DNA of 64,000 nt from contig JBBQUR010000006.1 of the NCBI GenBank assembly GCA_038212275.1, forward strand, positions 64,001 through 128,000, given 5' to 3'. Origin of the DNA: Planctomycetota bacterium. GTDB taxonomy: Bacteria > Planctomycetota > B15-G4. Under the pieces are notes generated by a model, which saw only the letters and a list, made by a program, of their open reading frames with translations, searched no databases and was not told the origin of the DNA. This document shows positions 1 to 62,086 of the stretch, piece by piece; position 1 is the stretch's first letter; every line of letters starts with the position of its first letter. A program made the translations under genes and the position numbers.

Positions 1-664
1 GCCGCAGGTGCGTCCCGACGTCGTGGTGCGGCGCGTCGGCGAAGACTTCGAGATCTCGATCGAGAACGACTGGGTGCCCAATCTCGTGCTCTCGCGCTCT
101 TATCGTCAGATGGCCCGGGATCGAAGCGTGGACCCGGAATTGCGCAAGCACATCCGGGGCAAGCTCGACGGCGCGCAGTCGCTCATCGAGGCGATCGAGC
201 AGCGCAAGAACACGCTGTTCCGTGTCGCGAGCGAGCTGGTCAACCGACAGGCGGACTTCCTCGAGCACGGGCCGTCGGGCCTGCACCCGCTGCGCATGCA
301 GGAGGTGGCTGATGCGCTGGCAGTGCACGTGTCCACGGTGAGCCGTGCGATCTCCGGCAAGTACATGCAGACGCCCCGGGGCATCATCCCGATGAAGCTG
401 CTGTTCACCGGCGAGATCCCCTCGCGCGCGGGAAGCGCGTCGTCCACCGACGGAGACGAGACGGCGTCGCGAGCGGGCGTGCAGGAACTCGTCCGCGGGA
501 TCATCGGCGCGGAGGACGTTCGCGATCCGCTCTCGGACGAGTCGATCGTCGAGATCCTCAAGACGCGGCATGGTCTGGACATCGCGCGACGGACCGTGAC
601 CAAGTACAGGAAGGCCCTGCGCCTCGGGTCGTCGCGCGACCGGCGCGTCTACGGCCAGGCGTGA
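1..664 (+). CDS. rpoN: RNA polymerase sigma-54 factor (3' part, truncated by window start)
   Basis: HTH segment VHVSTVSRAISGKY and RpoN box ARRTVTKYR; followed by hpf/ptsN/ptsH as in canonical rpoN operons. Confidence 0.97.
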   Translation, partial: PQVRPDVVVRRVGEDFEISIENDWVPNLVLSRSYRQMARDRSVDPELRKHIRGKLDGAQSLIEAIEQRKNTLFRVASELVNRQADFLEHGPSGLHPLRMQEVADALAVHVSTVSRAISGKYMQTPRGIIPMKLLFTGEIPSRAGSASSTDGDETASRAGVQELVRGIIGAEDVRDPLSDESIVEILKTRHGLDIARRTVTKYRKALRLGSSRDRRVYGQA

Positions 665-1515
665 GCCACGGCGACGTCGCGGCGGACTCGCGCCGGCGCG
701 CTCTCCTGCTGGCCTACGACGGGGGGGCTTATGCCGGCTGGCAGGTGCAGCCGGACCAGCCGACGGTGCAGGGCCGGGTCGAGGCGGCGCTGGCAGCACT
801 GCTCCGGCAACCGGTGCGCATCAGCGGCTCGGGGCGCACCGACGCGGGCGTCCACGCCCTGGGACAGGTCGCGCACTTCGACGACATGCACGGCTTTCCC
901 CCCGGACGGCTCGCGGCGGCCCTCAACAGCCTGCTGCCTGCGGACATCCGCGTGCTCCGGGCGATGGTCGTCCCTCCCGAATTCCACGCGCTGCACAGCG
1001 TGGTGTCCAAGACATATCTCTACCAGTTGCACCTGTCCCCCGGCACGGGAGGTGCACGGGCGGCGCTTGCCTCGATGCCGCCACACCGCAGGCTCACCTT
1101 TCACGCGGTGCGCGGCGACCTCGACCTCGGGGCGATGCGCCGGGCGGCGCGGTTTCTGTGCGGGACGCACGACTTCACGGCGCTCAGCAAGGCGATGGTG
1201 GACGGGCGCGGCACCGTCAAGACGCTGACCGCGCTGCGCGTGCTCCGTGTTCCGGGTGGCGTGCGTGTCTTCGCGACGGCGGACGGCTTCCTCTACGGCA
1301 TGGTGCGACTGCTCTCCGGTCTGCTCGTGGAGGTCGGTCGCGGGAGGCGCGCGCCGGAGGACGTGCCGGCTCTGCTGGCCGCCGCCGATCGGTCACGCGC
1401 CCCGGCACTCCTTCCGGCATGCGGCCTCTTTCTCTGGAGAGTGCGCTATCCCGCGGGCATGTGCACTCACGGCGGGGCGGTCGCCTGCTATGCTGGCGAA
1501 GGACCGCGGCCGTGA
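661..1515 (+). CDS. truA: tRNA pseudouridine(38-40) synthase
   Basis: AYDGxxYxGWQ, GSGRTDAGVHALGQVAHF and FLYGMVR motifs; GTGA overlap with the rpoN stop. Confidence 0.96.
   Translation: MSHGDVAADSRRRALLLAYDGGAYAGWQVQPDQPTVQGRVEAALAALLRQPVRISGSGRTDAGVHALGQVAHFDDMHGFPPGRLAAALNSLLPADIRVLRAMVVPPEFHALHSVVSKTYLYQLHLSPGTGGARAALASMPPHRRLTFHAVRGDLDLGAMRRAARFLCGTHDFTALSKAMVDGRGTVKTLTALRVLRVPGGVRVFATADGFLYGMVRLLSGLLVEVGRGRRAPEDVPALLAAADRSRAPALLPACGLFLWRVRYPAGMCTHGGAVACYAGEGPRP
1486..1494 (+). promoter_or_regulatory. possible extended -10 promoter for hpf
   Basis: TGcTATGCT about 50 nt upstream of the hpf ATG. Confidence 0.3.
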
Positions 1516-7922: not shown

Positions 7923-8969
7923 ATGCAATTGCGCGTGAACATTCGAAGGATCAAGCTGCTCGTCTGGCTGCTGTGCGCCCTGACGTTTCTGTACGCAGGC
8001 TACACTTTCTACGAAATTTATTCGGACAAGGTCGCAGGGCGATACAGCGCTCGCAAATCGACGATTTTCGCCGACCTCCTGACGCACAACGTGAACGCGA
8101 ATTCGTTGAACCCTCGCGCCGGCAAGGAAGGTTTCTACCCGGAAGATCGTTACAAAAAACTCTGGGATGCACTCGTCGACGGGTCGGTACGCCCGGTCGA
8201 CGCCGGGCCGGTTGCGCCTGTGGAGCCGGCGCTACCGCAGTTTGTCCTGCCCGATCTTTCGGCGATCATTCACATCGGGCTCGTGGTCTACAGCAAGAGC
8301 CCGGTAGAGCGATTCGTAGCGCTGTCTTACGTTGCCGATGCCGCCAAGGGGGGAGGAGGTGCGCCGGGAGGAGCGCCGCCCACCGCAGGCAAGGAGGTAA
8401 GACTGCACCTGTCGGAGGGTGATCCGCTCAAGCCGCCCTACGATGCTGGGTACTACAACGGCAAGGTGCTGCGCATCGGCTTGCAGGAGGTGGTTTTCCA
8501 GTGGGGTGAGACCGAAGTCACCTTGACACCCAGTCTCGGCAGCGAGGGCGGAGGCCAGACCCTTGACCAATTCAAGGTTGCGCCGAGCATCGATCCGACT
8601 GCGGGCGTCCAGAAGGCACCTGATGACTCGGTCGAAGTGGCGCCTGGTCACTGGATCATCGGGACGAAGGACATTTCGCGTATGAAGCACGACCCGCAGG
8701 CCTTCATGAGCGAGGAACTGAACGTTCACTCCGTCACGGGTGTCTCGAGCGGTCGCACAGAACTTGAAGTCAGTGAAGTCAAAGCTGGATCACTCGCCGC
8801 CCAATACGGGGTGAAGACAGGCGACAAGATCATCTCCGTCAATGGATTTCCGATGAGCAGCGTCTCTGCCGCGATCAACTGGGCGAAAGCCAATCCAGAC
8901 CTGCCGATGTACGTCATCGCATACGAGCACGCAGGACAGTTGAAAACGGTCACGATTCACGTGAAGTGA
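7923..8969 (+). CDS. GspC-like (type II secretion protein C) bitopic membrane protein with C-terminal PDZ domain
   Basis: N-terminal TM (LLVWLLCALTFLYAGYTFY), HR-like segment GKVLRIGLQEVVF, PDZ VKAGSLAAQYGVKTGDKIISVNG. Confidence 0.6.
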   Translation: MQLRVNIRRIKLLVWLLCALTFLYAGYTFYEIYSDKVAGRYSARKSTIFADLLTHNVNANSLNPRAGKEGFYPEDRYKKLWDALVDGSVRPVDAGPVAPVEPALPQFVLPDLSAIIHIGLVVYSKSPVERFVALSYVADAAKGGGGAPGGAPPTAGKEVRLHLSEGDPLKPPYDAGYYNGKVLRIGLQEVVFQWGETEVTLTPSLGSEGGGQTLDQFKVAPSIDPTAGVQKAPDDSVEVAPGHWIIGTKDISRMKHDPQAFMSEELNVHSVTGVSSGRTELEVSEVKAGSLAAQYGVKTGDKIISVNGFPMSSVSAAINWAKANPDLPMYVIAYEHAGQLKTVTIHVK

Positions 8970-9682
8970 CAGCCTCGGAACTCATCACAATCGACATAGG
9001 GAACTCGTCGATTGGCATCGGTCGACGGCTTGACGAAAGATGGATCGTTCAGCGCGTTCGCGAACCACGTGAAGCGGCCATGCTCATTCGAGGTGATTCC
9101 GTTGCAATCTCGGTAGCGCCGACCAGATTCGAGCAGCTCCGCAGGGAAGTCTCGGCGCTTGGCTATCCGCGGATTCGCGAACTTCAGCGCCCTCCGCCGC
9201 GATTGACATTTGCCTCGCCGGAACTTCTACTGACCGCCGGATCGGACAGGATCGCCAATGCTTTGGCTTTGCTTCCAGGGCCTGGAATTGCTGTCGATGC
9301 GGGAACCGCTGTGACGATCGATGTGGTCGATTCCGCGGGTGTCTACCGCGGTGGGTTCATCGCCGCGGGTCCTGGCGCTTCGTCGGCGGGGCTGGCGGCG
9401 ATCACCGCTCAACTGCCCTTCCTGACAGGAATGCCTGCAAAGTTGGTTCCCGGCGATAACACTGCCGATGCGCTTGGCGCAGGACTGTGGGGGGCAGCCA
9501 TTGGTGGCGTGGACCGATTGGTCGAGTGCGCGATACACTCGCTTTCGCCGGGATCCCCCGCGTGTGTCGTGGCTACTGGTGGATGGGGACGAGCATGGGC
9601 TGCTGAGAGTCGGCATTCCCGAATTCACGACGAGCCCAATCTCGTACACATCGGGATTGCGCGTTGGGCAGAGTGGATGTGA
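8966..9682 (+). CDS. coaX: type III pantothenate kinase
   Basis: IDIGNS, GSDRIAN, VDAGTAVTID, GGFIAAG, VATGG motifs. Confidence 0.9.
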   Translation: MTASELITIDIGNSSIGIGRRLDERWIVQRVREPREAAMLIRGDSVAISVAPTRFEQLRREVSALGYPRIRELQRPPPRLTFASPELLLTAGSDRIANALALLPGPGIAVDAGTAVTIDVVDSAGVYRGGFIAAGPGASSAGLAAITAQLPFLTGMPAKLVPGDNTADALGAGLWGAAIGGVDRLVECAIHSLSPGSPACVVATGGWGRAWAAESRHSRIHDEPNLVHIGIARWAEWM

Positions 9683-10653
9683 ATACCTGGCGAAGAGTAA
9701 CCGCAGAGGGCCTCTCCTCTGTCGCGATACTGGACGTGCGCGGTGACTTGCGAAGCCTCTGCATTCGGGATCCTCACGGGTGCAGGGTTGGCTGGCCATC
9801 CATCGGTGAGTTTCGACATTGCCTTCTTTGCAATTCACATCATGTCGTGGACGAGGTGCTCGTGCTGGGCACCGCGCGCGGAGCTGAACTTCATCTGCAT
9901 GGTGGGTTCGGTTCGGCAAGCGCGGCCGAGGCATGTCTGCGTGCAGCCAATTTCGTACGAGAGCAGGCGACCGATGAACCCGCACCTCGGAGTGCATGCC
10001 ACGCTTGGGCCCTCCTTTCGATCGAACACGGGCCCCTCGCGCGGCTCCACACCTTCATTGATCGCGGTGCTGCGTCGACTTGCAACGAAACGGCTCTGCC
10101 GGACCTACTTCAGCAGGATATTGCGAGTTGCCGTCAGCGAGAGGGCCTCGGCGAAAGACTGGCAGTCCCCCCCGTTGTAGCGATCGTCGGGAGGCCCAAC
10201 GCCGGAAAGAGCACGCTCTTCAACTCAATAGTCGGTAGCAAGCGCGCCCTCGTTGCCCCCGAAGCTGGGACGACTCGGGATGAAGTTCGAGGACTTGTGG
10301 AACTCGACGGAATTGCTGTGGAACTTGTCGACACGGCCGGAGCAGTTACCCCGATACCACTTCAGTCACGTGCGGATGTCGTCGTGCACCTCCTGACAGA
10401 ACCTGACGAACAGCAGCGGAAAGTCTTGCCACGTCAAACCATCATTCGAGCCATGGGACATGCCGATCAGTTTTGCGACCATGCCATGTTGGCGGTTTCG
10501 GGGCTCACCGGCATTGGCGTTCCGCAATTGCTGGGGAACATCTCGATGTCCTTGGGCCTGCAGCACCCTGAAGGAGCTGAACTGTGGGCGCCAGTTGGGG
10601 CGAAACTCCGGCGATGGCTCCGACCAGGGAAGTCTGCTGCTCCGCTACGCTAG
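9679..10653 (+). CDS. shortened MnmE/TrmE-like GTPase
   Basis: TrmE-N-like (VVDEVLV, ELHLHGG), G1 GRPNAGKS, G2 GTTRD, G3 DTAG; GTGA overlap with coaX. Confidence 0.75.
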   Translation: MNTWRRVTAEGLSSVAILDVRGDLRSLCIRDPHGCRVGWPSIGEFRHCLLCNSHHVVDEVLVLGTARGAELHLHGGFGSASAAEACLRAANFVREQATDEPAPRSACHAWALLSIEHGPLARLHTFIDRGAASTCNETALPDLLQQDIASCRQREGLGERLAVPPVVAIVGRPNAGKSTLFNSIVGSKRALVAPEAGTTRDEVRGLVELDGIAVELVDTAGAVTPIPLQSRADVVVHLLTEPDEQQRKVLPRQTIIRAMGHADQFCDHAMLAVSGLTGIGVPQLLGNISMSLGLQHPEGAELWAPVGAKLRRWLRPGKSAAPLR

Positions 10654-11007
10654 GGGGCAGGCCAGGGAGATACCCGGCATGAGCAGGATACTGCTGAGAC
10701 GAGCATCGCAAACCGAATCGATCGTCAGGTAGCCCAAGAGAGAATCGTCGGGTGCGAATGGGCTTGCAGAGAGTAGGCTGTTTGGCTCTCGTTTTGGCCC
10801 GTTGCCCCCGACCAAAGCCATCTAAAGGGCTTGCGCGAAATGAACACGCTGCGCGATCGTCACCGGACCCCGCAAGACGGGCACACAGTCTCAACAAGTG
10901 CTCCATGCTCGCGCAGGCGACTGCCGCATCCGACGGAATGCGGCACACATGTATCTGGATCCATATCGAAGGCGCGTAGCGTAGCCGTCGCCCGCAAGTA
11001 CCCGTTC

Positions 11008-14000
11008 ATGCTGTTGCTGACGATGATCCTAGTCGCGGCAGGCCTTGGCTGTGGTGGAGGAACGGGTGGAGGTGCTGGGCCAACGGATGGCGGACCGAGC
11101 GGCGGCAACGGCAGTCTGGACCCAAAGAAGGACTTTTTCCTCACTGCTGCGGCCTTCGCCAGGCCGATCTTCGATGTTGCAGGCAAGTTGATTGGAGTCG
11201 TCAACCCCGCGTCACTGTTCGAAGTCGACCCCATCACAAATGTACCACTACCGACTTTTCCAAAAGTCCTAGTTCCTGGAACGAGTCTTGGCAGTTTGGC
11301 TTCATTGAACTTCGAGCAAATCCTGGACCCGCTGACGCCGCAAGTTCCGCTGATTCCGCGCAACAGCGCACTGGTTCTGCAATTCACCCAGCCTATCAAG
11401 GTCGACTCACTCATGTTGAGCGATGCTGACGCGGCGGCACCGGACCAAATCACGTCAACAAGTACCGTACAGATTCGGCGACAGGACGGCTCAGTCGTCC
11501 CTTCACGTGCCTTTGTTGACGGATCCAAGCTTATCATTATCGGAAATGTCGGCGACTCAGTGGGATTCGAGGCGAGTCCGTTGGTATTCAATAGTTTCGG
11601 AAACGCTGTTGAGGACCCGAAGGGCTATTTTCAGCTTGTGCTTGGCGTCGGGTCAGGCAAACTGCTTTCCACGACGGGTTTGGCGCTGGTTCCTCGTGAG
11701 GACAAGCTTGGCTCCGTAGGATTGCCAATTCCTGTAAATCCAGGAAATTCAAGCCTCGACGCGATTGTACTTCAGACTGAAAGTGGAGTCGTTTCCTTCA
11801 ACGGATTTCTACCTGACCTGACAGCCCCTAGATTGATTCGTCCGGTTGCTCAAGATGGATTCATTGATATTGTCGGATTCGCGTCTGAGGCTGGCCAGCA
11901 GATTATTGAGATCACCGGTGCACCGCTCCTGCAGGCGCCAAACGTGCTCGCCAACGGTGGCTTGGGTGAGTGGGCGAGCGCCCGGATGGACATCACCGGA
12001 ATCGGCAACGCCGTCAGCTCATACGTAGTTCTCAGAAATTATGCGCAGGTGCTGCCTCCGAACAAGCCCGTGTTCCAACTCGCGCCAGGAAGCCTCCTGG
12101 ATCCATCGGTCGTGGTCGGAAGCAAATTCAAGCTAATCCGCTCGGAATTTTTTGAACCGATTCCGCCTCCATTGCCCAATGGCACATTGCAGCTCGCCAA
12201 AGTCACTGTTGACCCTATTAATCACCCGCGTGACCCGCTTGACCCGCAGGATTCATTCAACCACGACTTGCGCTATTTCGTTCGCATGTTCGACGAAGAT
12301 GGAATGGAGGAACTCGACCGATGGAACCCGGCGACTGGCCTCTTCCTCGCGGTATCGCCGAAGTCAGAGCTGCGATTGACGTTCAGCGAGCCCATGGACT
12401 TGTCATCATTTCGACCATACGAAAACTTCTTCGTGACGGACCTCGCTCAAGTCAAGAGCGCAACGGCATTCGAGGCTCAGCGTATCGGGCAACCGATCGC
12501 CAGCAGCGACAGCCGTTCAATATCATTCGTTCCTCTGCTCGAGAACCAGCAGGCTCCCGATACGGAAAGCTTCATCGGATTCGGCGGGACACCTTCCAGT
12601 CTGAAACTCGTCCTGCGAACGATTCCAGAGAAGTCGCAGATTGCGGCACTCAAGGCAAGTGCGTCCCCGGCTCAACTGGCGCTTCTGCAGGATCTCGAAA
12701 CCAAGGGCGTGCTTGGAATAAACGACCTCGGGGGAAGGGGGCTCGGCCTACCGCAAGCACTGCTCGATCAGGGCAATACCACGCAGTTTCTCCTTCAGTC
12801 TACTAGTGTGGGAGGTGGGCCCTTTCCACCTGCTGTTGATTTTCAAGTCGCATTCCAGACGATGCAGTCGAGCGACCCAGACTACGGCGCCGTCGTCCAC
12901 CGATTCATGGGGCAGGCTTCAACTGCGTCCTTCACATATCCGAATGGTTCGATCCACGATACGGTGACATCTGGTGTTGAGTATGCTGATCACCCTGCAA
13001 TTGACGCCAATGGCGACAGTGTCATTGACCAGCGATTCATCTACGGACCGCAGACTTTCGACATCGCGCTCAACCTCCCCGGAAAACTGGCTGGTGCAAG
13101 CGCGCAGACGATACAGCACCTGATCGATGATTTTAACAAGCCAAAGGTGTCCCCGTACTCATCTCCAAACGGAGAGGACACGCTCAAGAAGCTAGGATTC
13201 GGACTTAGTACGCCATTAAACTCGCCACTTGGCTGCCGCTTTCAGCATGTCTATCGAGCCGGTGATGCGTCGCCTTCGTATAATGATTTCAACGGCGTCA
13301 TCCTTGACCTCGTAGGTCTCGCATGGTCACCACTGAACAATACAGTCAGCAATACGGTAATAGACGACATTGAAATATTGGTCGGTCTAAGCGGCGCTGG
13401 AATGCTGCAAGGGCCTGGAATTACGACCGGTGGCGACGGCATCCCCGATTCTCCGCAGTCAGGGCTGATTCAGCAATTCGATTGCAATCTCCTCGAGTGG
13501 GCAGAAAATTGCTGCCTGCTATCATCCTTGCCCGAGTTCCCCGCGTCTCTGATAAAGTACATTGAATCGGAGCCAAAGCTTACCCCCGTTGTCGCGTCTG
13601 GAACCGCGTATCCGATCGTCGCGGGCTCGCTGTTCAAGCCCCAGAACGCCGGTGCTCCCGGTACATTCAACCTTTGGATGAATTATCCAACATTCAACTC
13701 TGGAACTGATCCAATTTTCGGCAAGACAACGACCAAGTCATTTCCCTACGACAGCCGATTTCCGATGCTCATCGAATATCGTATTGATCCCGCTAGCTCG
13801 GTGTATCCATCGACCAATAACTTCTACCGATTCTCGCCCGGACTGCTCTCGTCGGCACTGCCCCGCTTCCGAATCTGGAGTCAGGGGCAGGATCCCTTGG
13901 CTTACTCCGTTCCGAATTTCACACTAGGCTTATCAATGCCTGGTACAATTGCATGTACATTTAAAGCAGGTGAGGGGGGGCCGCTCTACGAACCGGGGAC

Positions 14001-14745
14001 ATTCACTTCCGACATCCTGCCTCCGACGCCCAACAACGGCATGCCCATAATAAAAGCTTCGGTATATCAACTGCCGCCCAAAGCAAATTGCGTCGAAGCG
14101 CAGTTGCCGAAACCAGACTTGGTGCTTGGCAAGATACCGGGGCCACCGGTAGTGCTTCCAATGTCCAACACCGACCCGAATACTAACTGGTACTACGCCG
14201 ACGGGCAGCTTGCATATCCACTCCCGAACAAAGGGTGTTTTCCCGGTCCAGCCAACCCCGGGCAGAAAACGGCAAATGTTGGCTATGGCATAGATGGCGT
14301 ATGCACCGCAGGAAGCCCGCTCAACGTGAACGAGCCGAACTATCAGTGCAATCCGGGTCAATACGGGGATAATTCTCGATATTTTATGCTTTGGCAGTAT
14401 CGAAAGCGTGTTTCGATCATCGAGTCACCGACCCTTATTGCCACGGCTCCAAGTGGCTTGGTTGAATACCGAGTGCCGATCATACAGCCGCCGCTCTCCA
14501 CAGTGGATCCAGCTGCAGGCTTGAATGTCGAAGTGCGTGCGGGTACCGAACTCGACTTCTCAATCCCAGTACTGGAGTCAGGCTACGTATCGGTTACCGA
14601 TCCGGAGTTTGTCAGCAAGGTATCCGGCGAGAACGTCGATCGGCAGTTCGTGAAGTTTCGAGCAAGTTTTGCAGTCGCACCCGGACAGTTTCAGCCTCCG
14701 TACATCGACACGATCATCATTCCTTATCGCAGGGTCGCCCCATGA
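11008..14745 (+). CDS. giant lipoprotein A with Ig-like (SbsA/Big_5-like) domains, function unknown; start uncertain (10981-11008)
   Basis: lipobox AGLGC followed by GGGTGGG; Ig-like motifs LVLQFTQPIKVDSL and LRLTFSEPMDLSSF; uninterrupted 3.7 kb ORF. Confidence 0.8.
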   Translation: MLLLTMILVAAGLGCGGGTGGGAGPTDGGPSGGNGSLDPKKDFFLTAAAFARPIFDVAGKLIGVVNPASLFEVDPITNVPLPTFPKVLVPGTSLGSLASLNFEQILDPLTPQVPLIPRNSALVLQFTQPIKVDSLMLSDADAAAPDQITSTSTVQIRRQDGSVVPSRAFVDGSKLIIIGNVGDSVGFEASPLVFNSFGNAVEDPKGYFQLVLGVGSGKLLSTTGLALVPREDKLGSVGLPIPVNPGNSSLDAIVLQTESGVVSFNGFLPDLTAPRLIRPVAQDGFIDIVGFASEAGQQIIEITGAPLLQAPNVLANGGLGEWASARMDITGIGNAVSSYVVLRNYAQVLPPNKPVFQLAPGSLLDPSVVVGSKFKLIRSEFFEPIPPPLPNGTLQLAKVTVDPINHPRDPLDPQDSFNHDLRYFVRMFDEDGMEELDRWNPATGLFLAVSPKSELRLTFSEPMDLSSFRPYENFFVTDLAQVKSATAFEAQRIGQPIASSDSRSISFVPLLENQQAPDTESFIGFGGTPSSLKLVLRTIPEKSQIAALKASASPAQLALLQDLETKGVLGINDLGGRGLGLPQALLDQGNTTQFLLQSTSVGGGPFPPAVDFQVAFQTMQSSDPDYGAVVHRFMGQASTASFTYPNGSIHDTVTSGVEYADHPAIDANGDSVIDQRFIYGPQTFDIALNLPGKLAGASAQTIQHLIDDFNKPKVSPYSSPNGEDTLKKLGFGLSTPLNSPLGCRFQHVYRAGDASPSYNDFNGVILDLVGLAWSPLNNTVSNTVIDDIEILVGLSGAGMLQGPGITTGGDGIPDSPQSGLIQQFDCNLLEWAENCCLLSSLPEFPASLIKYIESEPKLTPVVASGTAYPIVAGSLFKPQNAGAPGTFNLWMNYPTFNSGTDPIFGKTTTKSFPYDSRFPMLIEYRIDPASSVYPSTNNFYRFSPGLLSSALPRFRIWSQGQDPLAYSVPNFTLGLSMPGTIACTFKAGEGGPLYEPGTFTSDILPPTPNNGMPIIKASVYQLPPKANCVEAQLPKPDLVLGKIPGPPVVLPMSNTDPNTNWYYADGQLAYPLPNKGCFPGPANPGQKTANVGYGIDGVCTAGSPLNVNEPNYQCNPGQYGDNSRYFMLWQYRKRVSIIESPTLIATAPSGLVEYRVPIIQPPLSTVDPAAGLNVEVRAGTELDFSIPVLESGYVSVTDPEFVSKVSGENVDRQFVKFRASFAVAPGQFQPPYIDTIIIPYRRVAP

Positions 14746-17700
14746 TCTTTTCGCCTCACAAAAGCGTGCACGGTCATGTTCTGGTCTCCGCCATCATGGT
14801 TGTCGCCTTGCTCGCGGGATGCGGTGGCGGAGGGGGTAGTGGAACGACCGTCGATCCGCCGTCGGCGAGCAAGGTTGCATTTACAGGCTTCAGTTTCAGA
14901 ATAGGATCGAAGGCTGCGAGTAGCGTGCCGCCCTTCGAGAATACGACGGCTGTACCGCCCTCGCTCGGCGCACCGTTGGATGTGACTATAATTTTCGAAT
15001 TCACCGGAGCGCCCCAGGGCCCTTTCACCCAGGCAAACCTTCCGGTCTATACAACAAGCGCCGAAGTGAATCCATCAGCGTTTCCACCGCTGGGGCAAAC
15101 GGTGATCGCAGCGAAGGGAAAATACGTCGCCGTTGGTTCGACTGTCGAGTTTAGGCCCTTTGTTCCAACACAACCGTTACAGGTGAAACTCAGTGCTCCG
15201 GCCGCTGCGGTACCAGGATTGTTGCCAGCCTCCGTCTACACAGCACAGGTCTCGTCGACCAATGGGGAGAAATTGACAAACCTGCTGGGTGCTGGGGGCA
15301 CTGTCAAGTTCGGAACAACTTCAAACCCCGCAGCCTATTACGCAGTGGGATCGGGTGATGGCAAGGCACCATCATTGCTCGCATCCCTCCCCGTTGACGG
15401 CACGACGGGTTTCTATCCGGGTGTCTTCTCTAACTACGCACCAGGTTCGTCCATCGCTAGCTTTCCGGATGGCCCAAAGTCGATCACCCTCAGCTACGAT
15501 CGCGCAGTCCTGCCGACGGTTGAAAACCTGAACGGCAAGGATTGGGACGGGGACGGGATCACGGATCCGTCGTTCTTTCTTCGAACAAGGGCGACCAGCC
15601 TGCTGGTTGGTGCCATGATTCCAGCGTTCTCCTCCATTGGTAATACTCTAGCATTCCCATCGATTTCCGGACTTTCGCCGGGAAGTTCCGTGGCAGTGGA
15701 TGGATCGGACATTGTCCTACACAATAGCAAGGGATCGGGGGCACTCGCTGGTGCCAACCCTGCGCTCATCGCGCTCCCAGGAAGCCTCGCCACTGGCTCC
15801 GACCCGTCCCTGCTATGGGTAATTCTTAAGGTTGGCGATGGAAATGACAAACTCACAGTGGTTGATCAGATTCTCGGCGATGCCTCGTATTGCCAGATCA
15901 GCTCTGACGCGGCGATCGATACAGGGCTGGACGACGTGGTGGGACTCACAACGCTTCAAAGTGGTCGCCTCATAGCATTCGACAGGACGACACGTCGTAT
16001 TTATGAACTTCTGGCGAACGTCACTAGGCATCGGCCTGCCGGAGAGCCGGAGTTGGCTAGCCCAACAGGGGACGGAATGGCTAGTTTTGGATTCATCAGT
16101 GAACCGTTTCCGAATGGCGTCGACATTTTGGACCTAGCTCAGACTCCGTCGGGATCAGTGCTCGCGCTCGCGGAAAACGGCAGCGCGTTTCCCGTCATCC
16201 TGCACCTTCTGCCAATCGATCCGGACCTGAATGGTGAATTTCTTCCGACAGATGGCAACGTTGACAATTCGATTCCGGCAATACTCCTTGGCGCAGCTTA
16301 CGCATCAATCGAGTGTACTTCTGATTCAGAATTCTTTGCACTGAACCGCTCGAGTGATTCGATTGATGTGCTTTCTGCGACTGGAAGCAAGCTTCTTACG
16401 GTAGTGAATGGCGTCGCCGCGTACGGTATAAATCTTGCGTCGCTTCCCGACGGTCTATCGCCCGCGTGTTCGCTCGCGATTGGATTCATGGAAATGGACG
16501 CTGGTGTAACAGTGCAGACCAATGGATCGACCGGGGCAATTCTTGAAATAGTCCCAAAGGGAATACTGCCAATTGGTGCCGACGTGTCAGTGATGCAGCG
16601 AAATAGCTTCTCGGCCCTCAACGGTGTAAGCGCCGCGAACGAAGATCCTTCCCACCCGGTGTCAGTACTTGGCTCGACGCGACTGCTGACCGTCTCGACT
16701 TCCGCTCCGAGTTCGACAGTGGGTGCGTGTACGCTTCCCGACCCAGACAGCCGAGTGAACGATGTATACCAAGAGGAGTTCCTCGATTCTAAGTACGAGG
16801 ACACTTCCCCTCCAACGCTCTCGCCTCAGGCCGATTGGGCGAAGCTTATTACTGGTTCAACTCCGAGTGGTAGCCTTCGCGCTTTAGCGGGAGCGTCAGA
16901 CCAAAGTTCGTTGGGCGACTTTCAGCCCGCTCCGTTTTCTGATTTCGATCCCAGTTTGGCATACCCGATTGGCAGTGCCACGCTGGCACATTTTGCATAT
17001 GTGTTTCTCGATACCGATGCGCAGGCGTTTCCGCTGCCGAATGGCGCGACGCCTGGTGTTACTACAAGCGCTACCATCGGCGGCGGAAAGTTCACATTCC
17101 GAGACTTCATTATTCCGGAGGGCGTGTGGGTCGTGGCGCGGGGCAGCAATCCGCTCCAAATCACGGCCACCGGGATGGTCGAAATTCGTGGTGTGCTGGA
17201 CGTATCAGGCACAAATGGCATCGGAGATGAGACGTTTGATTCCGGATATATCCCAGTTCCCGGGGGCGCCGGTGGGCCCGGCGGCGGACGTGGGGGGAAC
17301 GGTCACCCCACACTTTTTGACCCCAATGGTCCTGGAACGCTCAACCAGTACGTGACACCGGAGACTGGCGAGCGAGGCCTTGGGCCCGTCATTGGTACCG
17401 GTGGCGGGGTAGTGATGGCGTCGGTTGGTGGACATGGCGGCCGTTCGACGCTTGGGGCGGATTTTAGCGCCCCCGGTGGATATCCAGTAGTCGGCAATAC
17501 GACGAACAACTCAGAGTTCACTCGGCCTCCCGGAGGCGGTGGAGGAACCTTCTATTTCCACGGGATGTATGCACATTCGGGAACAGGTGGATATGTGGTG
17601 CAGAGCAACTCCACGTGGTTCCCGTTCTCCCTGTGTCCAATCAACGACAAGATTCGCGACGCACTCTATGGAAATGACGAGAATCGAGCGCAGGGGCTGC

Positions 17701-19616: not shown

Positions 19617-19626
19617 ACATCAAGAC

Positions 19627-20376
19627 GTGGGACACCGTGCTGCTTTTCTGTGTTGCTTCGTCTTGTCAGGTTGCTGCAGGGGTGCCTTGCCCGCTGAGCT
19701 CCTTCCGGATTCTGCGGGGGCGCGACCTCTGAATGGAGCAATTGTTGTCGCGCTCGATGGGAATATTGATCCTCTCTCCGTTACCTCGAGTTCCGTGCGT
19801 GTCGAGCGAATGGATGGAACCGAATTTCCGATCGCCATCAGGAGCGACTCTGGAACTGTCCGGATTCTGCTGGTTGTTACTGATGACTATTTCAGCCGAC
19901 ATGGTGGTGGTGTCTGGCTTGAAGTTGCCGGGTTTCCTTCGCCAAGCGCATTAGTAACTCTAGACGGTCGCTGCCTGCGTTCCACAGTTCGGCGTTGCAT
20001 CGTGTTGGAGCCACACCTCGGCGCGGGTTCTGCAGTCCCACCGATGGTAGTTTCAGTTAACGGGACTACTGATTGGAGCGATCCGGTCGTAGTTGCTGGA
20101 ACGAACGTTGTCCTGTCGTTCGATGGAGTTCTGGATCCGAACACAGTCACGTCGGTGTTCTGCCCGATCTATCCAGATGCTGGTGAACTTACTTTGATGG
20201 CGCCGCTGCTTCCCGCCGTGACGTGGGAATGCGTTGGTAGCCGATTTGATGTAATTCTTGTGATACCGCCAGCGTCGGGACTCTTGCATTTCATTCTCCG
20301 GCGGTGCGGATTTCGCGACTTGTCCGGCAGGCCTCCCGAACCCGCCAGTCTTTCCGTCAACTTGCTCTCCATGTAG
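19627..20376 (+). CDS. small putative lipoprotein with two Ig-like (Big_5-like) repeats
   Basis: LSGC lipobox-like; IVVALDGNIDPLSVT and VVLSFDGVLDPNTVT repeats. Confidence 0.6.
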   Translation: MGHRAAFLCCFVLSGCCRGALPAELLPDSAGARPLNGAIVVALDGNIDPLSVTSSSVRVERMDGTEFPIAIRSDSGTVRILLVVTDDYFSRHGGGVWLEVAGFPSPSALVTLDGRCLRSTVRRCIVLEPHLGAGSAVPPMVVSVNGTTDWSDPVVVAGTNVVLSFDGVLDPNTVTSVFCPIYPDAGELTLMAPLLPAVTWECVGSRFDVILVIPPASGLLHFILRRCGFRDLSGRPPEPASLSVNLLSM

Positions 20377-20402
20377 CATTGACTGGAACTTCGGTAAATC
20401 TG

Positions 20403-20430
20403 TTGGAATCCGTTGCGCGCATCATAGAAT
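20403..20430 (+). promoter_or_regulatory. promoter for a probably leaderless pilD mRNA
   Basis: TTGGAA-N16-TAGAAT, then 7 nt to ATG 20438, no SD. Confidence 0.45.
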
Positions 20431-20437
20431 CCCAGGC

Positions 20438-21331
20438 ATGAACCTCTACTTGAATGACTGGGCAGTGCATGCGCTCTCTGGCGCCTTCGGGCTTGTGGTC
20501 GGTAGCTTCGCAAATGTAGTGATTTTCCGCTCGCCGCGCGAGGGGTTATCCAGCTTTCGACCAGCTCGCTCATTCTGTCCAGCATGCCACGCACAGGTGA
20601 GCTTGTTTGACAACGTGCCGGTGGTCTCATGGCTTATGCTGAGGGCGCGATGCAGGAGTTGTAACGCGCCAATCAGCATGCGCTATCCTGCCGTAGAAAT
20701 ATTGATGGGTGCGATGTTCGTGGTTGCGAGCTTGGTCATTGCACCGTCTACTGCAGGCAGCTATGTGCGTCTCGCCGCCGCGTTCTATCTCGTCGCTACC
20801 TGCGTCATTGTCACATTGATTGATCTTGAGTATCTGATCATTCCGGACAGCATCACGTGGCCCGGGGTGTTTCTTGGCCTGGTTGCGTCAACCATATTTC
20901 CAAGCCTCCAAGTTGGTCATCCTGGATTCAAGTTGGAAAGCCCGCATAGTAGTGCGCTCATAGCCTCACTCTTCGGCATTATTGTGGGTGGTGGAGTGCT
21001 TATCCTTGTGGGACTCATCGGCAACGTCATGCTGAGACGGCGACTCAAGGAGGCAGGAGTGCAAGATGCGATGGGTTGGGGTGACATCAAGTGGATGGGA
21101 CTTGCGGGCGCGTTCCTTGGCGCATCATCGGTCGTGGGCGCAATCCTGATTGGTTGCTTCAGTGGTGCTGTTGCCGGATTGTTCATGAAGCTTCTAGCGA
21201 AGTTAAGGAATCAACCGCAACCAGTCGGGCTGCCGTTCGGCCCATTCCTGTCGGTTGGGATTCTTGTCGAGTTTGCGCGTCCTGGGCTTACATGGAGTGT
21301 GCTCGACATGCTCACGAGTACCGCTCGATGA
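20438..21331 (+). CDS. pilD: prepilin peptidase / N-methyltransferase (A24A)
   Basis: GSFANVVIFR, RSFCPAC and RARCRSC Zn motifs, IDLEYLIIPD, MGWGDIK, LPFGPFL. Confidence 0.96.
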   Translation: MNLYLNDWAVHALSGAFGLVVGSFANVVIFRSPREGLSSFRPARSFCPACHAQVSLFDNVPVVSWLMLRARCRSCNAPISMRYPAVEILMGAMFVVASLVIAPSTAGSYVRLAAAFYLVATCVIVTLIDLEYLIIPDSITWPGVFLGLVASTIFPSLQVGHPGFKLESPHSSALIASLFGIIVGGGVLILVGLIGNVMLRRRLKEAGVQDAMGWGDIKWMGLAGAFLGASSVVGAILIGCFSGAVAGLFMKLLAKLRNQPQPVGLPFGPFLSVGILVEFARPGLTWSVLDMLTSTAR

Positions 21332-21416
21332 TGGGCTGTGAGGCGCACGCGCATTTCACGACTCTTGCACTTTAGTCAGACCGAGTCGGTTCGAAATGGC
21401 GCGACTCCTCCTCGGT

Positions 21417-22307
21417 TCAGTTGTCGAGTCCGAATAGGGTGTGGGCGTTTGCTGTTGTTGTCGCTGCAAGTATTTCGTAGTTGAGTCCGCGGTCGTCGGC
21501 CAATCGCCTTGCGACATGACCGATGAAGGCCGGCTCATTTCGGCGACCTCGGACCGGTACTGGCGCAAGCCAAGGCGAATCTGTTTCCAAGAGCAAGCGA
21601 TGAATTGGAATATCTTTCACGGCATTTCGAAGCACGTTGTTAGGTCGAAAGGTTGCCGCACCGCCAACTCCAATGTGCAAGCCGGCGTCGATGATTGGTG
21701 AAACGTCAGACTGAGCACCTGTAAAACAATGCAGGACACCTCGAAGTGGAGTTCCGCGCCAAGCATCCAGCTCACGAGTCAGTCGTTCAAATGCGTTGCG
21801 ACAATGCAATATGACAGGTAGCTTGCGTTCGACGGCGGCGCCAAGGTGCCTCTGTAAGGAGAGGGCTTGATCGTCGAGTGAAGTGCCTTTGTGGAATGCG
21901 TCGAGGCCCGTCTCTCCAACGGCGACAAACCCACCCTCATCAAGTAGGGTCTCGATGTCCCTCCAGGCCGATTCATCAGTGATTGCAAACTCGGTCGGGT
22001 GTATTCCGGCCGTGGGGTATCCCCAGCCAGGAAGCCCTGTTGCGATGAGCTTTGCGGCTCGTGCGCTCTTGGGGTCGACCGCCACAACGATGCATCCGAC
22101 GACACGCGCCGCGCGCGCCCGGGCGACGACTTCCTCACGGTCCATATCGAATGCGCTGAATGCCAAGTGGCAATGGCTATCAAATAGGGAGGATATTGCC
22201 AAGTCCGGCTCAGGAATTGCGGTTGTAGAGGGATGGGGCAAGTCCGTCGCATCCGATCGGGTCGCGGCGTCAGGAATTATCATGTTTTGCCCCTCTACCG
22301 TGCTCAT
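21417..22307 (-). CDS. tatD: TatD family DNase/hydrolase (start uncertain)
   Basis: DSHCHL, AGIHP, VGETGLD, LHCR, GVLHCF, LETDSPWL, RNEP. Confidence 0.95.
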   Translation of the reverse strand: MSTVEGQNMIIPDAATRSDATDLPHPSTTAIPEPDLAISSLFDSHCHLAFSAFDMDREEVVARARAARVVGCIVVAVDPKSARAAKLIATGLPGWGYPTAGIHPTEFAITDESAWRDIETLLDEGGFVAVGETGLDAFHKGTSLDDQALSLQRHLGAAVERKLPVILHCRNAFERLTRELDAWRGTPLRGVLHCFTGAQSDVSPIIDAGLHIGVGGAATFRPNNVLRNAVKDIPIHRLLLETDSPWLAPVPVRGRRNEPAFIGHVARRLADDRGLNYEILAATTTANAHTLFGLDN

Positions 22308-22470
22308 CGCCGTGTCACGTCTCCCGTGGTTGCTGCGTCCTGAGAAGCATGCTGGGCACGCCTGTGGTCGGCATGGCATTCTATGGCGTCGTCCATGGCC
22401 GCTGCCGGGCCTGTCAAATTGCGGGCAGGACCGAACGAATCCTCGCATTTCCCTCGGGAAGTTGTCCCCG

Positions 22471-25400
22471 ATGCGTATGTCTTTCAGTTTTTTTCGTAGT
22501 TCCAGCTTTGCGTTGCTCTGCCTTCTGATCGGGGCATGTGGCGGTGGAACCGTTGCGAGCAGTTCCAGCGGTGGTGGCGGCAATGGTGCCGGGGGGGCGT
22601 TTTCCGTAACCGGCGGGCCTAACGGGGGGGGGATAGGTGGTCTCAACCTCCCGGTGAGCTTGGTGTTCAGCAAGGACATCAGTCCGGCGTCAGTCAACGC
22701 CGTGACCGTGCAGGTCGTCACGATCCTCGATCCAGCTGGTCAGGCAACAGCGCTTCCTGGAATTGTCGCTAGCGTGACATATTCAGTGACCGGCAACTTG
22801 CTCCGGTTGACACCCAGCGTGACTTTTGAGCCCTCCAAAGTAAGTTATGGATTTGTCGCAAACGCCCTCTACGAGATTGCCTTCAGCGACCCCAGCAACG
22901 GTGCTTCGGTTACCTCAAGTACCGGGCAGTCAATGGCCAACCCCGAGGCAACGTTCTTCTTTCGGACGCCATCCAAGGGCTTCGACTTGAATCCGGGTTA
23001 TCCAGCGGTTCGCGCCTTCTTCGTGGATGATCCGAGTTCAGTGTCGCTGCCTGCGGTGATCTTGGATATCAACGGCGATGGTTCCTTGCTTCTGGAGGTA
23101 CTCTCGTACTACGAGAACGAGGTCGAAGTCGTGGCGCTATCGTCGCCCCTCGAGGTGCCATCGGCGCCAGTACGGGACATTCTGTTCATATTCAATGACG
23201 CGGTCATTCCGAATACGGTACTCAACCCGATAGATGACAGCAGCCCGGCTATCGTTGTCTCGATCAACGCGGCTTCACTCCCGACTTATCTGCCGAAGGC
23301 CATTCCTGCCGAGTACTCATTCACCCATCAGCAGGCAGACCTCAGCATCATACGATGGCACCCGGCTGCGACGGCGTTTCCACCGGCGAGCTTCCTGTTC
23401 GTAGAAGTCGCCCCAACCGTGCAGGATCTGGCATGTAATACTAAGGCCGGACAGTCAGAGGTCGGCGTTCCCGATCTGCTGGCGACGATTCGGGTTTCCG
23501 ATGATCCGGACTTGGCCGTTTACACACTGACGGAACCCTTCGACGACGACTCGAACGAGGACCAGAACAATACGTCTGCCGCTTGGGCATCGGATTTTCC
23601 TGGCTTGCTTGGCCCGGTTCTTGGCGGAGGCACGGGTGCCGAGGGCCCACTGCTCATCGACTCAAATATCACCGTCTCTGATCCAGGACAGACGGTGGTT
23701 CCGATTGGCTCCGTGATTGATGTACCAGGCAAGCGTCTGTTGCTGCCAACGGTCGAGGCTGTGGCTGAGGGCGTCTTTGAGCCGCGAATCTATAACTTGT
23801 CCTCTTTTCTCCTTCCCGCCGGCTGGACCTTGGGGGTGCTCTTCGACCGTAACGGTGATGGAGTATTTGACCCCGATGAGTACCTAGTGCAGAGCATCGG
23901 GCATCCTCTGGATGGGATGGGCGCCCCATTGACCATTCGATGCGCCGGTAACCTGCAGTTGCTGGGCATCGTTGATGTACGTGGCGCCGATGCGCCTACT
24001 CTGGTCCGCCCGGAGAGCACCTTTGATGCTCTTTACTCCGGTTATATGGGGCAAGGTGCGCCATCGTTGGCAGCGCTGCAGGCGGGAGGCAGCGGGGGGC
24101 GTGGTGGTGATGTGTTGCTGCTGGGTAGCGGTGGTCTCAACCCCATTCCGTTGAAGTCACCATCCGCCGTTCCTGCCTACCAGTCGTCGGACGGCAAGTT
24201 GACAGGAGCGAGCGGTCGGAGCAGCTTGCTTACTGCAACGACGCTGCACGATTCGAATGCAAACTTCTTTGCGATCGACAATGTGCACGGTACAGGCGAT
24301 CCCGCGCTCGTATCTCTGGTAAATGCCGGTGAAATACTGCTTCAGCCGAATCTCGGCGTAGGCAGCTCTCTACTAGGCAACAGCGGAACGGCGAATCAGT
24401 CGATCGACGAAAATCATCCTACATTCGTCGTCGAATCAGTATCAACGGTCTCGGGACAAACGACATTCACTGTGCGCTCGGCGCCTGGAGACCCGACGCT
24501 CACGCAGGCTAGCAAGAACATCGGAATGTCCGCGATCGCAGCAGCTGGAGACTGCTACCTCGTAGGGCGCTTGCGCGGCGGTAATGGCGGTGACACGACT
24601 CCCATGGATCGAGGGGGTGTGGGTGCGGAGCCGTTCGTCGTCGTGAATGAGGGTGCCCTTGGAGTCAGCACGACGGGCGGTGGAGGCGGAGGTGGGGGCT
24701 CTATCCGTGAAGGTTCAACCGGTGAGAGTGACGGCCCTCCTAGTGACCCATTGGTCAACCAGCGGGGCCTCTCTGGTGGCGTCGCACTGGATGATTCTGC
24801 GGGCGCAAACGGCGGATTGGGGACGATCGAAGGCCTCGGTAAAATCATTAACAGCAGCCAACTCGACGTCGTGAGCCAGACTGGTGGTCGGCCACTCGCC
24901 GAATTGGCAGGAGGCGAACTCGTTGGCAGTTTGATTCTGCCGAACGTTTTGAACGATGGTTGGCTCTTCGAGATCGTGGCATTTGATGGATTCACGATTA
25001 CGGTTGAGCACATCCAGATTGATGCGATTGATGTCGGCCTGACCGACGATCCCGGCCTTATTCCTGGTTCCGACTATGCATTCCGAATTGTGCCATCGCT
25101 CGAGATCGGCGGCGCTGGCGGTGGTGGCTCCGGAGTTTGCGTGACTGGAACTGTCAATAACGTGGCGACAGTTCTGCCGACACTGGCGCCGGGGGCAGCT
25201 GGTGGCACTGGAGGCGGAAGCGTCCTGCTGGAAACAGCGCGTGACCTGCTCGTCGGTCCGACTGGCGGTGTGCTGGCGGACGGTGGCAAAGGCGGTCTGG
25301 TGTTCGATGTTCAGACTAAGTTTGCAGGCGGTGGTGGAGGGGGTGGAGGAAACGCTGTCATTCGCGCTGGCAGATCACTCCAGGTATTCCAGGGCGGACG

Positions 25401-26793
25401 AATCTCGGTAGAGGGTGGCTTGGGTGGTAGCCAGAGTGGCTTCGGGCGAGGCGGGTCGGGTGGTTCAGGCTACATCCGAATCGAGTCATTCGAAGACGAT
25501 ATTGCGCCCTCGAGCCTCGCAAACGTTACGTTCCCATCCGTCGATGAAAGCAATATGGGCCGCCTGATCGGCCTTCCTCAGGGTGTCGCCCAGAGTCTTT
25601 TCTATGAAGCTTCTACGCTGAATCCGGCGTGGCAAGGCGTCCACGTGAGCTATTTTGCGGACACAAACGCGGATGATATTCTGGAATCGCTCGCGTGGAG
25701 TTTCGATGGAACGGGCAGCGATGGAGGGACTGAGAAGTACATTGACCCCCCGTTCAGGATAAGGTTCAACACGGCCCCGTTCAGTGACGCCGGTTTCATT
25801 GATGAGACTCTCGTGAATAGTGAGTTCTATTCTCCGGCCGATCTGGTCTCGGCACGGACAGGATTGGCGTGGAACTCGGCGGCAAACGTGTTGCTCTTTT
25901 GCGTCGGTGAGGGCTGCACGCAGATCGATCGACTGGATCCGATCAGCCTGCTACCGGTCTCCACTGGAGTCCCAAACGTCCTCCTGCCCGTCATCCCTTC
26001 GGTGGGCTCTTCCAAGCTGAATGTCCTGTCGATGGCCGTGGATGCTTCACGGTCTGAAGTGTTTCTGCTTGAGCGTGCAACACGGAAGGTTCACGTCATC
26101 GATGCGAACACGGCGGAATTCAAGCGAACAATCACGCTACCTCGGGACCTTCAGGGGGCGATGACCTATTTGCCCGATCCACTGGATCTCCTCATTTTCG
26201 CCGACAATGCGAATGACCGCCTCGTGACATTCCTCCCCCGAAATTCTGCGGCTCCCAACCCGGCGACCACCGACTATTCGCCCTTGGTTCCGGTTTCGCA
26301 GTTCGATGTGAGTCGGGATGGAGTGTTGGTCGATATGGAGCTAGTTGGCATGGCGTATGACGAGATCTCGCAGCGGCTGTGGTGTTCAGACAGCATCGCC
26401 GGGTCGGTTTTCGAACTTAATTTTGCTGCGGGATTCGAAGGTACGTCTCTGATCGGAAGCGAACGATTCAGTGCGCTCACGTTTGGTGGCGACGGTGCCT
26501 TGCCATCTGCCATAGCGTTTCGGAGCGGGTCGTTGTTTCTTGTGCATGCTACCGATCCCCTGGACAGTCGGATTCAGTCGTTACCTCCGACAAGCGTCAG
26601 CCTGATCGGCGAGGATCTCGCCCTCACCGCATTCGGTGTGGTCTTGCCGGAGAGTCCGAGAGCAATCGGTGCTGGAGACGTGTTCATTCGATTCCGGGCA
26701 TCGATTGACGGCGCACATGATGCCGACGGCGTGTCGTTTCGTACGGTGCGTATCGACTCAATCGACATGCGCTACGTCAACGACTCGTTCTGA
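22471..26793 (+). CDS. giant glycine-rich lipoprotein C with Ig-like domains and beta-propeller-like segment
   Basis: MRMSF...LLIGAC+GGG lipobox; LVFSKDISPASV Ig-like motif; Gly-rich core homologous to lipoprotein B. The ORF-track start at 21883 is over-extended. Confidence 0.85.
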   Translation: MRMSFSFFRSSSFALLCLLIGACGGGTVASSSSGGGGNGAGGAFSVTGGPNGGGIGGLNLPVSLVFSKDISPASVNAVTVQVVTILDPAGQATALPGIVASVTYSVTGNLLRLTPSVTFEPSKVSYGFVANALYEIAFSDPSNGASVTSSTGQSMANPEATFFFRTPSKGFDLNPGYPAVRAFFVDDPSSVSLPAVILDINGDGSLLLEVLSYYENEVEVVALSSPLEVPSAPVRDILFIFNDAVIPNTVLNPIDDSSPAIVVSINAASLPTYLPKAIPAEYSFTHQQADLSIIRWHPAATAFPPASFLFVEVAPTVQDLACNTKAGQSEVGVPDLLATIRVSDDPDLAVYTLTEPFDDDSNEDQNNTSAAWASDFPGLLGPVLGGGTGAEGPLLIDSNITVSDPGQTVVPIGSVIDVPGKRLLLPTVEAVAEGVFEPRIYNLSSFLLPAGWTLGVLFDRNGDGVFDPDEYLVQSIGHPLDGMGAPLTIRCAGNLQLLGIVDVRGADAPTLVRPESTFDALYSGYMGQGAPSLAALQAGGSGGRGGDVLLLGSGGLNPIPLKSPSAVPAYQSSDGKLTGASGRSSLLTATTLHDSNANFFAIDNVHGTGDPALVSLVNAGEILLQPNLGVGSSLLGNSGTANQSIDENHPTFVVESVSTVSGQTTFTVRSAPGDPTLTQASKNIGMSAIAAAGDCYLVGRLRGGNGGDTTPMDRGGVGAEPFVVVNEGALGVSTTGGGGGGGGSIREGSTGESDGPPSDPLVNQRGLSGGVALDDSAGANGGLGTIEGLGKIINSSQLDVVSQTGGRPLAELAGGELVGSLILPNVLNDGWLFEIVAFDGFTITVEHIQIDAIDVGLTDDPGLIPGSDYAFRIVPSLEIGGAGGGGSGVCVTGTVNNVATVLPTLAPGAAGGTGGGSVLLETARDLLVGPTGGVLADGGKGGLVFDVQTKFAGGGGGGGGNAVIRAGRSLQVFQGGRISVEGGLGGSQSGFGRGGSGGSGYIRIESFEDDIAPSSLANVTFPSVDESNMGRLIGLPQGVAQSLFYEASTLNPAWQGVHVSYFADTNADDILESLAWSFDGTGSDGGTEKYIDPPFRIRFNTAPFSDAGFIDETLVNSEFYSPADLVSARTGLAWNSAANVLLFCVGEGCTQIDRLDPISLLPVSTGVPNVLLPVIPSVGSSKLNVLSMAVDASRSEVFLLERATRKVHVIDANTAEFKRTITLPRDLQGAMTYLPDPLDLLIFADNANDRLVTFLPRNSAAPNPATTDYSPLVPVSQFDVSRDGVLVDMELVGMAYDEISQRLWCSDSIAGSVFELNFAAGFEGTSLIGSERFSALTFGGDGALPSAIAFRSGSLFLVHATDPLDSRIQSLPPTSVSLIGEDLALTAFGVVLPESPRAIGAGDVFIRFRASIDGAHDADGVSFRTVRIDSIDMRYVNDSF

Positions 26794-26800
26794 GCCCGCA

Positions 26801-61969: not shown

Positions 61970-62073
61970 CAGCAGGAATCTCCAGGGCGGCCCGAGGCCG
62001 GGAGGGTCAGCTTGCCTCTCGGCCCGCCACGCGGGGCCGTGCTTCGGTGGCACGGCCATGCGTTGGGGGGCGG

Positions 62074-62082: not shown

Positions 62083-62086
62083 TCGG

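Follow-up and report, generated by a model that had tools for sequence, protein, structure and literature searches.

Four paralogous Ig-stalked lipoproteins encoded beside pilD and a GspC-like gene in a Planctomycetota genome, and their possible role as surface adhesins

The stretch of DNA analysed here (the window: 64,000 nucleotides, positions 64,001 to 128,000 of contig JBBQUR010000006.1, assembly GCA_038212275.1, from a Planctomycetota bacterium) encodes three giant lipoproteins (A, B and C) and a small one (D), together with a prepilin peptidase (pilD) and a GspC-like PDZ protein. By their sequence profiles, A to D are distant paralogs that form one superfamily. We tentatively read them as immunoglobulin-like (Ig)-stalked proteins that are likely surface adhesins exported by a type II secretion system (T2SS), with the GspC-like protein and PilD likely completing a distant gspD-J operon; our confidence in this reading as a whole is slightly short of even. 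Most likely, A to D are a new protein family working in a known way.

All four lipoprotein genes lie on the plus strand. An open reading frame (ORF) check agrees with the initial annotation on the lengths of the giant proteins and on their lipobox Cys and Gly tethers: A (11008..14745) has 1,245 aa from its ATG and carries LGC-GGG with Cys15, B (14742..19616) has 1,624 aa and AGC-GGGG with Cys27, and C (22471..26793) has 1,440 aa and GAC-GGG with Cys23. D (19627..20376) has 249 aa and an LSGC lipobox. The start of B overlaps the stop of A as ATGA, D begins 10 nt past B, and pilD (20438..21331, plus strand, both A24 Pfam domains above cut-off) begins 61 nt past D, so the coupling and spacing originally described also stand. 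Between pilD and C lies a minus-strand tatD gene, so that C would be transcribed separately.

BLAST finds no link between the four proteins, and their relationship appears only when profiles are compared. The hhalign probabilities are 100% for B-C, 98.9% for both D-B and D-C, 84% for D-A and 90% for A-B at the C-terminus, the last of which confirms that the related C-terminal motif noticed earlier is real. Elsewhere in the genome, tblastn finds no further paralog, and profiles give one weak match. Searches of A, B and C against Pfam, NCBIfam, PHROGs and PDB sequences return nothing beyond Big_5, AgmC and linker artefacts; the AgmC match is glycine-driven (25 bits against a cut-off of 275) and was rejected. 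With no full-length match to a characterised protein in these databases, the proteins can still be assigned to no characterised family, as the initial annotation held. Homolog names, together with the taxa of Atlas matches, agree in assigning the genome to Planctomycetota. Their named homologs are annotated as 'hypothetical' or 'Ig-like domain-containing', Atlas matches for the family (0.76-0.81) serve as leads only, and a literature search, mostly without subscription papers, found no description of it.

Predicted structures suggest a common plan of two CopC-like Ig domains followed by a split beta-sandwich, which carries a head in A, B and C. The AlphaFold model of A (residues 43-1242, 66 sequences) has a predicted local distance difference test score (pLDDT) of 90 and a predicted template modelling score of 0.80. 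In it, a first Ig domain (~43-247) and a second with an inserted beta-barrel (~270-621) precede a split jelly-roll (~626-1241), formed by residues near 626 and the C-terminus, that would carry a non-glycine head. In fold searches the first Ig domain matches CopC (Z 9.3, root-mean-square deviation (rmsd) 2.0, 91 aligned), and the jelly-roll gives middling matches to CBM61 (Z 7.2, rmsd 3.0, 118 aligned) and to phage tail proteins (Z 7.1-7.7); Foldseek with the whole model returns low-probability matches only. B itself was too long to model, and its fold was taken from a 976-aa homolog (L059:8961-11888; 60 sequences, pLDDT 88). In this model the second Ig domain matches CopC (Z 10.2, rmsd 2.3, 95 aligned), and a split domain (305..976) with middling resemblance to phage tail domains (Z 7.2-8.3) encloses a beta-helix over residues 351-813 that matches the FHA secretion domain (Z 9.5, rmsd 2.9, 124 aligned). 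The two halves of the helix flank a zone of 29% glycine with few strands, and in the B-type alignment the glycine tracts are conserved and the intervening loops variable. Mapped from the homolog, B would comprise two Ig domains, the second with an insertion of ~290 aa, a split beta-sandwich, and a beta-helix with a glycine-rich head at ~720-1430. Alignment to the same modelled homolog gives C the plan of B plus a propeller-like insertion of ~270 aa in its C-terminal domain. Both insertions may possibly be propellers, going by their sequence; the match of C to a YncE propeller model (E 0.003) is below cut-off. D is a truncated paralog that retains only the two Ig domains, with no head, and its homologs in distant families (600-800 aa) have a reduced head. 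Besides CopC (Z 9.3-10.2 over the stalk domains), the stalks resemble by fold the Ig domains of the S-layer protein SbsC (Z 6.6-7.9); unlike SbsC, they have two Ig domains only, no S-layer anchor was found, and the fold is a common one that implies no function.

The giant lipoproteins are unusual within their genome: the lipobox-plus-Gly/Ser pattern occurs in only 6 of 471 genomic ORFs of at least 900 aa, and three of the six are A, B and C, a rarity which argues against chance. Two more giant ORFs with lipobox and glycine tether (G000:C2:224158-227844, 1,228 aa; G000:C14:70577-75076, 1,499 aa) do not match the A-D profiles. Lipobox and tether are widely kept among homologs, the exception being one family of the same order (f2), in which the ten homologs of A, B and C that were inspected carry an ordinary signal peptide but no lipobox Cys (loci L049, L050, L051, L052, L053, L054 and L080); the A homolog of f2 also has an extra N-terminal PPC-like domain. 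Two other motif claims survive in part. D-x-D/N-x-D/N-G occurs twice each in B and C, but neither in A nor in D, and Big_5 matches are only marginal in the window copies (C, E 0.056), whereas three of eight family homologs scanned (the L093 D-type protein, P0260 and P0176) pass the cut-off. B and C each also contain six G-x-GG-x-GG runs.

The initial annotation staked its proposal on linkage to pilD and the GspC-like gene in other genomes, and this linkage recurs widely across genomes and families. Among 15 relatives in the source family, the six genes (GspC-like gene, A, B, D, pilD and C) stand in order on a single contig in ten, and B-D-pilD in 14, the exceptions being contig ends or incompleteness; the sister family f5 keeps the six-gene order in four of five genomes. 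In families f2 and f4 of the order, A and B are located elsewhere, and a D homolog directly precedes pilD in 15/15 loci fetched, all of which also contain one or more type IVa pilus genes. Of 18 genomes of other families, examined in 20 regions around their best B match, 12 show A-B-(A')-D-pilD. Phylum-wide, 46 of 79 genomes with A, representing 16 of 20 families, have an A-like gene no more than 13 kb downstream of a GspC-like gene; 24 of the remainder are unlinked (eight of them from f2 and f4) and nine lack a listed coordinate. In each of ten more distant loci the GspC-like gene is upstream: five show one family gene preceding pilD and the genes of the pilus, four have two members with no pilD in the stretch, and one runs off the stretch. 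A search for related loci by low-complexity pattern returned one locus.

From these comparisons the ancestral block can be reconstructed as truA-pilMNOQ-rne-rplU-obg-pilU-GspC-like-coaX-mnmE-A-B-D-pilD, followed by fusA2-pilT-pilB-pilC-pilA-tatD-C-amidohydrolase-DHH. Most relatives have this type IVa pilus operon, and the block in the window corresponds to it minus deleted pilus genes: tatD marks the site where relatives have fusA2-pilT-pilB-pilC-pilA upstream of tatD, pilB, pilT, pilC, pilA and pilMNOQ are not in the window, and the source genome has no pilN, pilO or pilA match. A PilO ortholog is found in 0/16 genomes of the source family, 1/5 of its sister f5 and 20/20 of the other three families of the order, and A-D, pilD and the GspC-like gene persist where the pilus genes were lost. 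The PilO of the relatives' pilus operon (L062:2001-3422) has 473 aa and ends in an HR-like domain of the PilP/GspC type (T2SSB, E 2e-5), and no separate pilP was seen in the operon; since the pilus has an HR-like domain of its own, it does not evidently require a GspC.

The family is both well kept and variable. Among 41 genomes of the order, A is matched in 37, B in 40 and C in 38; across the source genome's family A, B and C are intact and 50-60% identical, and D is intact too. Some relatives have tandem arrays of 3-5 copies of B or 2-3 copies of A, whereas C and D are mostly single-copy, so that A and B appear as expandable, variable members and C and D as fixed ones. Across 301 Planctomycetota genomes, the B-type and A-type profiles each match 79, many partially, and the A-type profile matches 0/16, 0/17 and 0/8 genomes in three well-sampled families. 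At E 1e-30 a profile of B and C collects 1,350 clusters, in part because unrelated giant proteins contain glycine-rich repeats. Giant Ig-like proteins of Desulfopila and Myxococcota (P0169, 7,437 aa; P0295, 4,063 aa) contain 11 and 7 stretches, respectively, that match the beta-helix/glycine head, so this module is also found in tandem outside planctomycetes.

The GspC-like gene (7923..8969, plus strand) encodes an N-terminal membrane anchor, a putative HR domain (~95-212) and a C-terminal PDZ domain. PDZ_6 is matched at 30.2 bits (cut-off 27), and among 21 aligned members a PDZ domain is present in 20 and a hydrophobic stretch near residues 12-30, read from the sequence, in all. GspC_delta is matched by 20/21 members below cut-off (best E 3e-17), the window copy reaching 22.9 bits against a cut-off of 150, which falls short of the curated family score; the members scanned have no match to the Pfam domain T2SSC. 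A predicted complex of residues 95-212 with residues 24-215 (N0-N1) of GspD scored 0.56, against 0.01 for the best control; at least 85% of contacts agreed between runs, and partner pLDDT was at least 71. The prediction is rated weak: of 157 solved pairs 116 reach the mark, as do 2 of 215 mismatched ones, and scores of 0.60 or less comprise 18 solved pairs and both mismatches. Structures of GspC-GspD complexes have already been solved, and the score may therefore reflect likeness only. A tandem second GspC-like gene occurs in some distant families (L091:3-305, L094:19610-19999, L144:2416).

The T2SS in question is encoded elsewhere in the genome, with a gspD-E-F-G-H-I-J operon on contig C4 and a GspL-like gene on contig C10. 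GspG scores above cut-off, GspD, GspE and GspF are best matched by T2SS models just under it, and H-J and L are weak matches. A gspD ortholog is present in 37/41 genomes of the order and 5/5 outside it, and none of 15 gspD loci has a GspC-like ORF nearby, which speaks for a GspC encoded elsewhere. PilD is the sole prepilin peptidase match in the genome, which has ~22 prepilin-like ORFs in several clusters. The T2SS/T4P-like machine of the initial annotation thus fits, but the idea of a dedicated set with its own local machine is not borne out, because a single PilD serves all these ORFs and because the block is a pilus remnant with housekeeping genes from which A and B relocate in two families. 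Contigs C1, C10, C12 and C22 encode another five PilB/GspE-like ATPases, two PilT-like proteins and an Amuc_1101-like cluster that includes a protein of 1,727 aa. In two f5 genomes, a gene of ~1,040 aa lies between gspF and gspG (L123:4235-7345 and L132:10429-13569), the L123 copy having no Pfam match.

In the sequence of events that we tentatively favour, A-D would be lipidated and exported by Sec, would pass through GspD, driven by a GspG pseudopilus that PilD matures, and would be displayed on the outer leaflet or perhaps released, one family lacking the Cys. The heads would then bind surfaces, glycans or other cells via their variable loops. The block would go back to an old superoperon of the type IVa pilus; the source family would have deleted the pilus genes and kept the GspC-like gene, A-D and pilD. 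The adhesin-like anatomy is argued from the match of the beta-helix to the FHA secretion domain, the conserved glycine tracts with variable loops, and the tandem arrays.

Several observations weigh against this reading. The GspC assignment depends on sub-cut-off matches, and the HR region aligns with the PilO-fused HR-like domain at an hhalign probability of only 34%. The gene does not adjoin gspD, which lies on another contig; it is also spread more widely than the lipoprotein family (161 vs 79 of 301 genomes, at different thresholds). GspK and GspM were not identified beside gspJ or gspL, though no genome-wide search for these families was made, and several other secretin/ATPase clusters in the genome could export A-D. 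A and B stand away from pilD in two of the five families of the order, and the order of rne, rplU, obg, coaX, mnmE, tatD, amidohydrolase and DHH is as conserved as that of the family genes, so linkage alone is no proof of shared function. Finally, the five distant loci with a single family gene have it just before pilD-pilT-(pilB)-pilC-pilA, which favours a pilus as much as a T2SS.

An alternative compatible with T2SS export, and one we consider unlikely but worth weighing, is that A-D co-assemble into a surface lattice, a fibre, or a secretin ring or cap, in which C and D would form the fixed base while A and B would be exchangeable. The stop/start overlap of A and B, and their adjacency in 12 of the 18 distant genomes sampled, would suit partners, as would the mostly single-copy C and D and the family whose A, B and C lack a lipid anchor, as though partners hold them. 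The split sandwich also has a middling likeness (Z 7.1-8.3) to phage tail domains in which an N-terminal and a C-terminal half combine. Parts of PMC10828601 describe a precedent, the T2SS of Deinococcus radiodurans, whose GspP and GspT, encoded in separate operons, are lipoproteins, one with an Ig fold, built onto the secretin as belt and cap subunits. A-D are likewise lipoproteins with Ig folds, but they span 250-1,600 aa rather than 155-208 aa, and the marginal N-terminal match (E 0.033, profile positions 1-90) to 8co1, the Deinococcus cap, vanished with a broader profile. Copy numbers of A and B moreover vary freely, just one or two members occur in distant lineages, and the A and B-type monomers are each modelled confidently alone (pLDDT 90 and 88).

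It is about equally improbable, in our estimate, that A-D are ordinary envelope lipoproteins independent of T2SS and pili, whose neighbourhood is inherited macrosynteny. The interleaved housekeeping genes are no less conserved, A and B have relocated without being lost, and pilD is required anyway for the ~22 prepilin-like ORFs. However, D remained directly ahead of pilD in all 15 loci from which A, B and mnmE had departed, variable-loop heads and tandem expansion suit an outward-facing role, and proteins this large, if exposed, would presumably need a route across the outer membrane.

A distinctly less probable explanation is that A-D are accessories of the ancestral type IVa pilus, such as tip or shaft adhesins, and here are relics or were passed to another pilus-like system. 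The ancestral block is a full pilus operon in which C comes after the pilA genes, the minimal block has one family gene before pilD-pilT-pilB-pilC-pilA, and Saltatorellota encode PilB and PilT (bioRxiv 10.1101/817700, in part). Yet all four genes are intact, with A, B and C 50-60% identical, in a family where 0/16 genomes have a PilO ortholog. The channel suggested by the initial annotation, the secretin at 59.4-62.0 kb (Secretin domain, E 4e-26), is probably unrelated and very improbable as the exporter of A-D: it ends an exbB-exbD-exbD unit 33 kb away on the opposite strand, its GspD match is C-terminal only, and no ortholog occurs in the fetched block neighbourhoods, which reach only ~10-15 kb past C. 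That unit (59438-63945, minus strand) encodes an 881-aa secretin whose N-terminal part is long and helical and which weakly matches the Amuc_1098 family, and a second secretin-like gene lies just past the window (L105:3908).

Known systems offer partial parallels to the route by T2SS. The nearest known logic is that of the Escherichia coli yghJ-pppA-yghG-gspC-M cluster (T2SS beta), which exports the surface-anchored lipoprotein SslE, or YghJ (PMC3707838, in part). That locus likewise places a large lipoprotein beside a prepilin peptidase, a small lipoprotein and gspC, and its T2SS export and surface anchoring are the route that we propose here. A-D are nevertheless not of the SslE family. SslE is an M60-like protease (PMC4014459, in part), whereas Pfam and NCBIfam give no M60-like peptidase match in A-C; gspD-M are not at this locus, where four paralogs sit inside a pilus superoperon; and D is a truncated B/C paralog with no match to a pilotin family in the same databases. 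InvL of Acinetobacter baumannii is a T2SS-secreted adhesin (PMC9245377, in part), as we propose for A-D, with an Ig-like stalk to judge from its invasin-like label, but A-D have no invasin-family match in Pfam or NCBIfam and their heads differ. For the heads of B and C, the closest likeness is to phage gp38, in which a beta-helix is made of N- and C-terminal parts and conserved glycine-rich motifs alternate with hypervariable loops (PMC12032242, in part). The B/C head shows the same alternation of conserved glycine motifs and variable segments, and its glycine-rich zone with few strands suggests, from the model, a polyglycine II geometry; unlike gp38, it would be carried on a lipid-anchored Ig stalk and split sandwich. 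gp38 is not among the best 50 fold-search matches of the B-type model, nor is there a PHROG match to it.

A bolder possibility, which we regard as speculative and unlikely, is that A-D are subunits of an ancient, undescribed surface structure of deep-branching Planctomycetota. A split T2SS with an orphan GspC would select the subunits of a lattice or appendage with exchangeable gp38-like polyglycine heads, which would have outlived the type IVa pilus once encoded with it. If so, this structure could underlie tissue-like aggregation or cell contact in Saltatorellota, for which parts of bioRxiv 10.1101/817700 describe tissue-like aggregates and type IV pilus genes that include those for PilB and PilT; the words 'lipoprotein', 'secretion', 'S-layer' and 'Ig-like' do not occur in its main text. 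About a quarter of the sampled Planctomycetota (79/301, many partial) have the family at a fixed site beside type IV filament genes, and it is without a name or a solved relative, and no paper on it was found. In lineages that metagenomes have mostly brought to light, it is a candidate for the principal apparatus of surface recognition, one that would involve a T2SS whose genes are divided among three loci and a cellular parallel to the polyglycine adhesin heads of phages. Engelhardtia mirabilis Pla133, a carrier in culture, has an annotated B-type homolog, which makes the question accessible to experiment.

The block also holds three housekeeping genes that had previously been omitted. Between the GspC-like gene and A lie two passengers on the plus strand, coaX (8966..9682; type III pantothenate kinase, Pan_kinase E 2e-23) and a gene for an MnmE-like GTPase (9664..10653; MMR_HSR1 E 2e-18, the MnmE model being the best match but below cut-off), and between pilD and C lies the tatD nuclease gene (~21417..22307, minus strand, start codon approximate; TatD E 9e-67). 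Scans for sigma-70 promoters and terminators gave results near shuffle level. No site scoring 11 of 13 against the sigma-54 consensus lies upstream of A here, and such sites occur in 0/24 other A loci and 0/18 C loci. A sigma-54-like site scoring 10 of 13 lies 210-240 nt upstream of the C Cys codon in 4/4 f4 loci (L055, L058, L065 and L078), each site being individually near shuffle level. Positions 9000-27000 of the window are the lowest-GC stretch of the genome (0.555-0.606 in 10-kb windows, against ~0.70). Recent transfer from a distant lineage was considered as the cause and is not supported, the same relatives being nearest for the block genes and for gspD. Third-position GC drops smoothly from 0.85 to 0.54-0.62 and returns, across coaX, mnmE, tatD, pilD and A-D alike, and in eight relatives the GC of the block is within 0.05 of that of its flanks.

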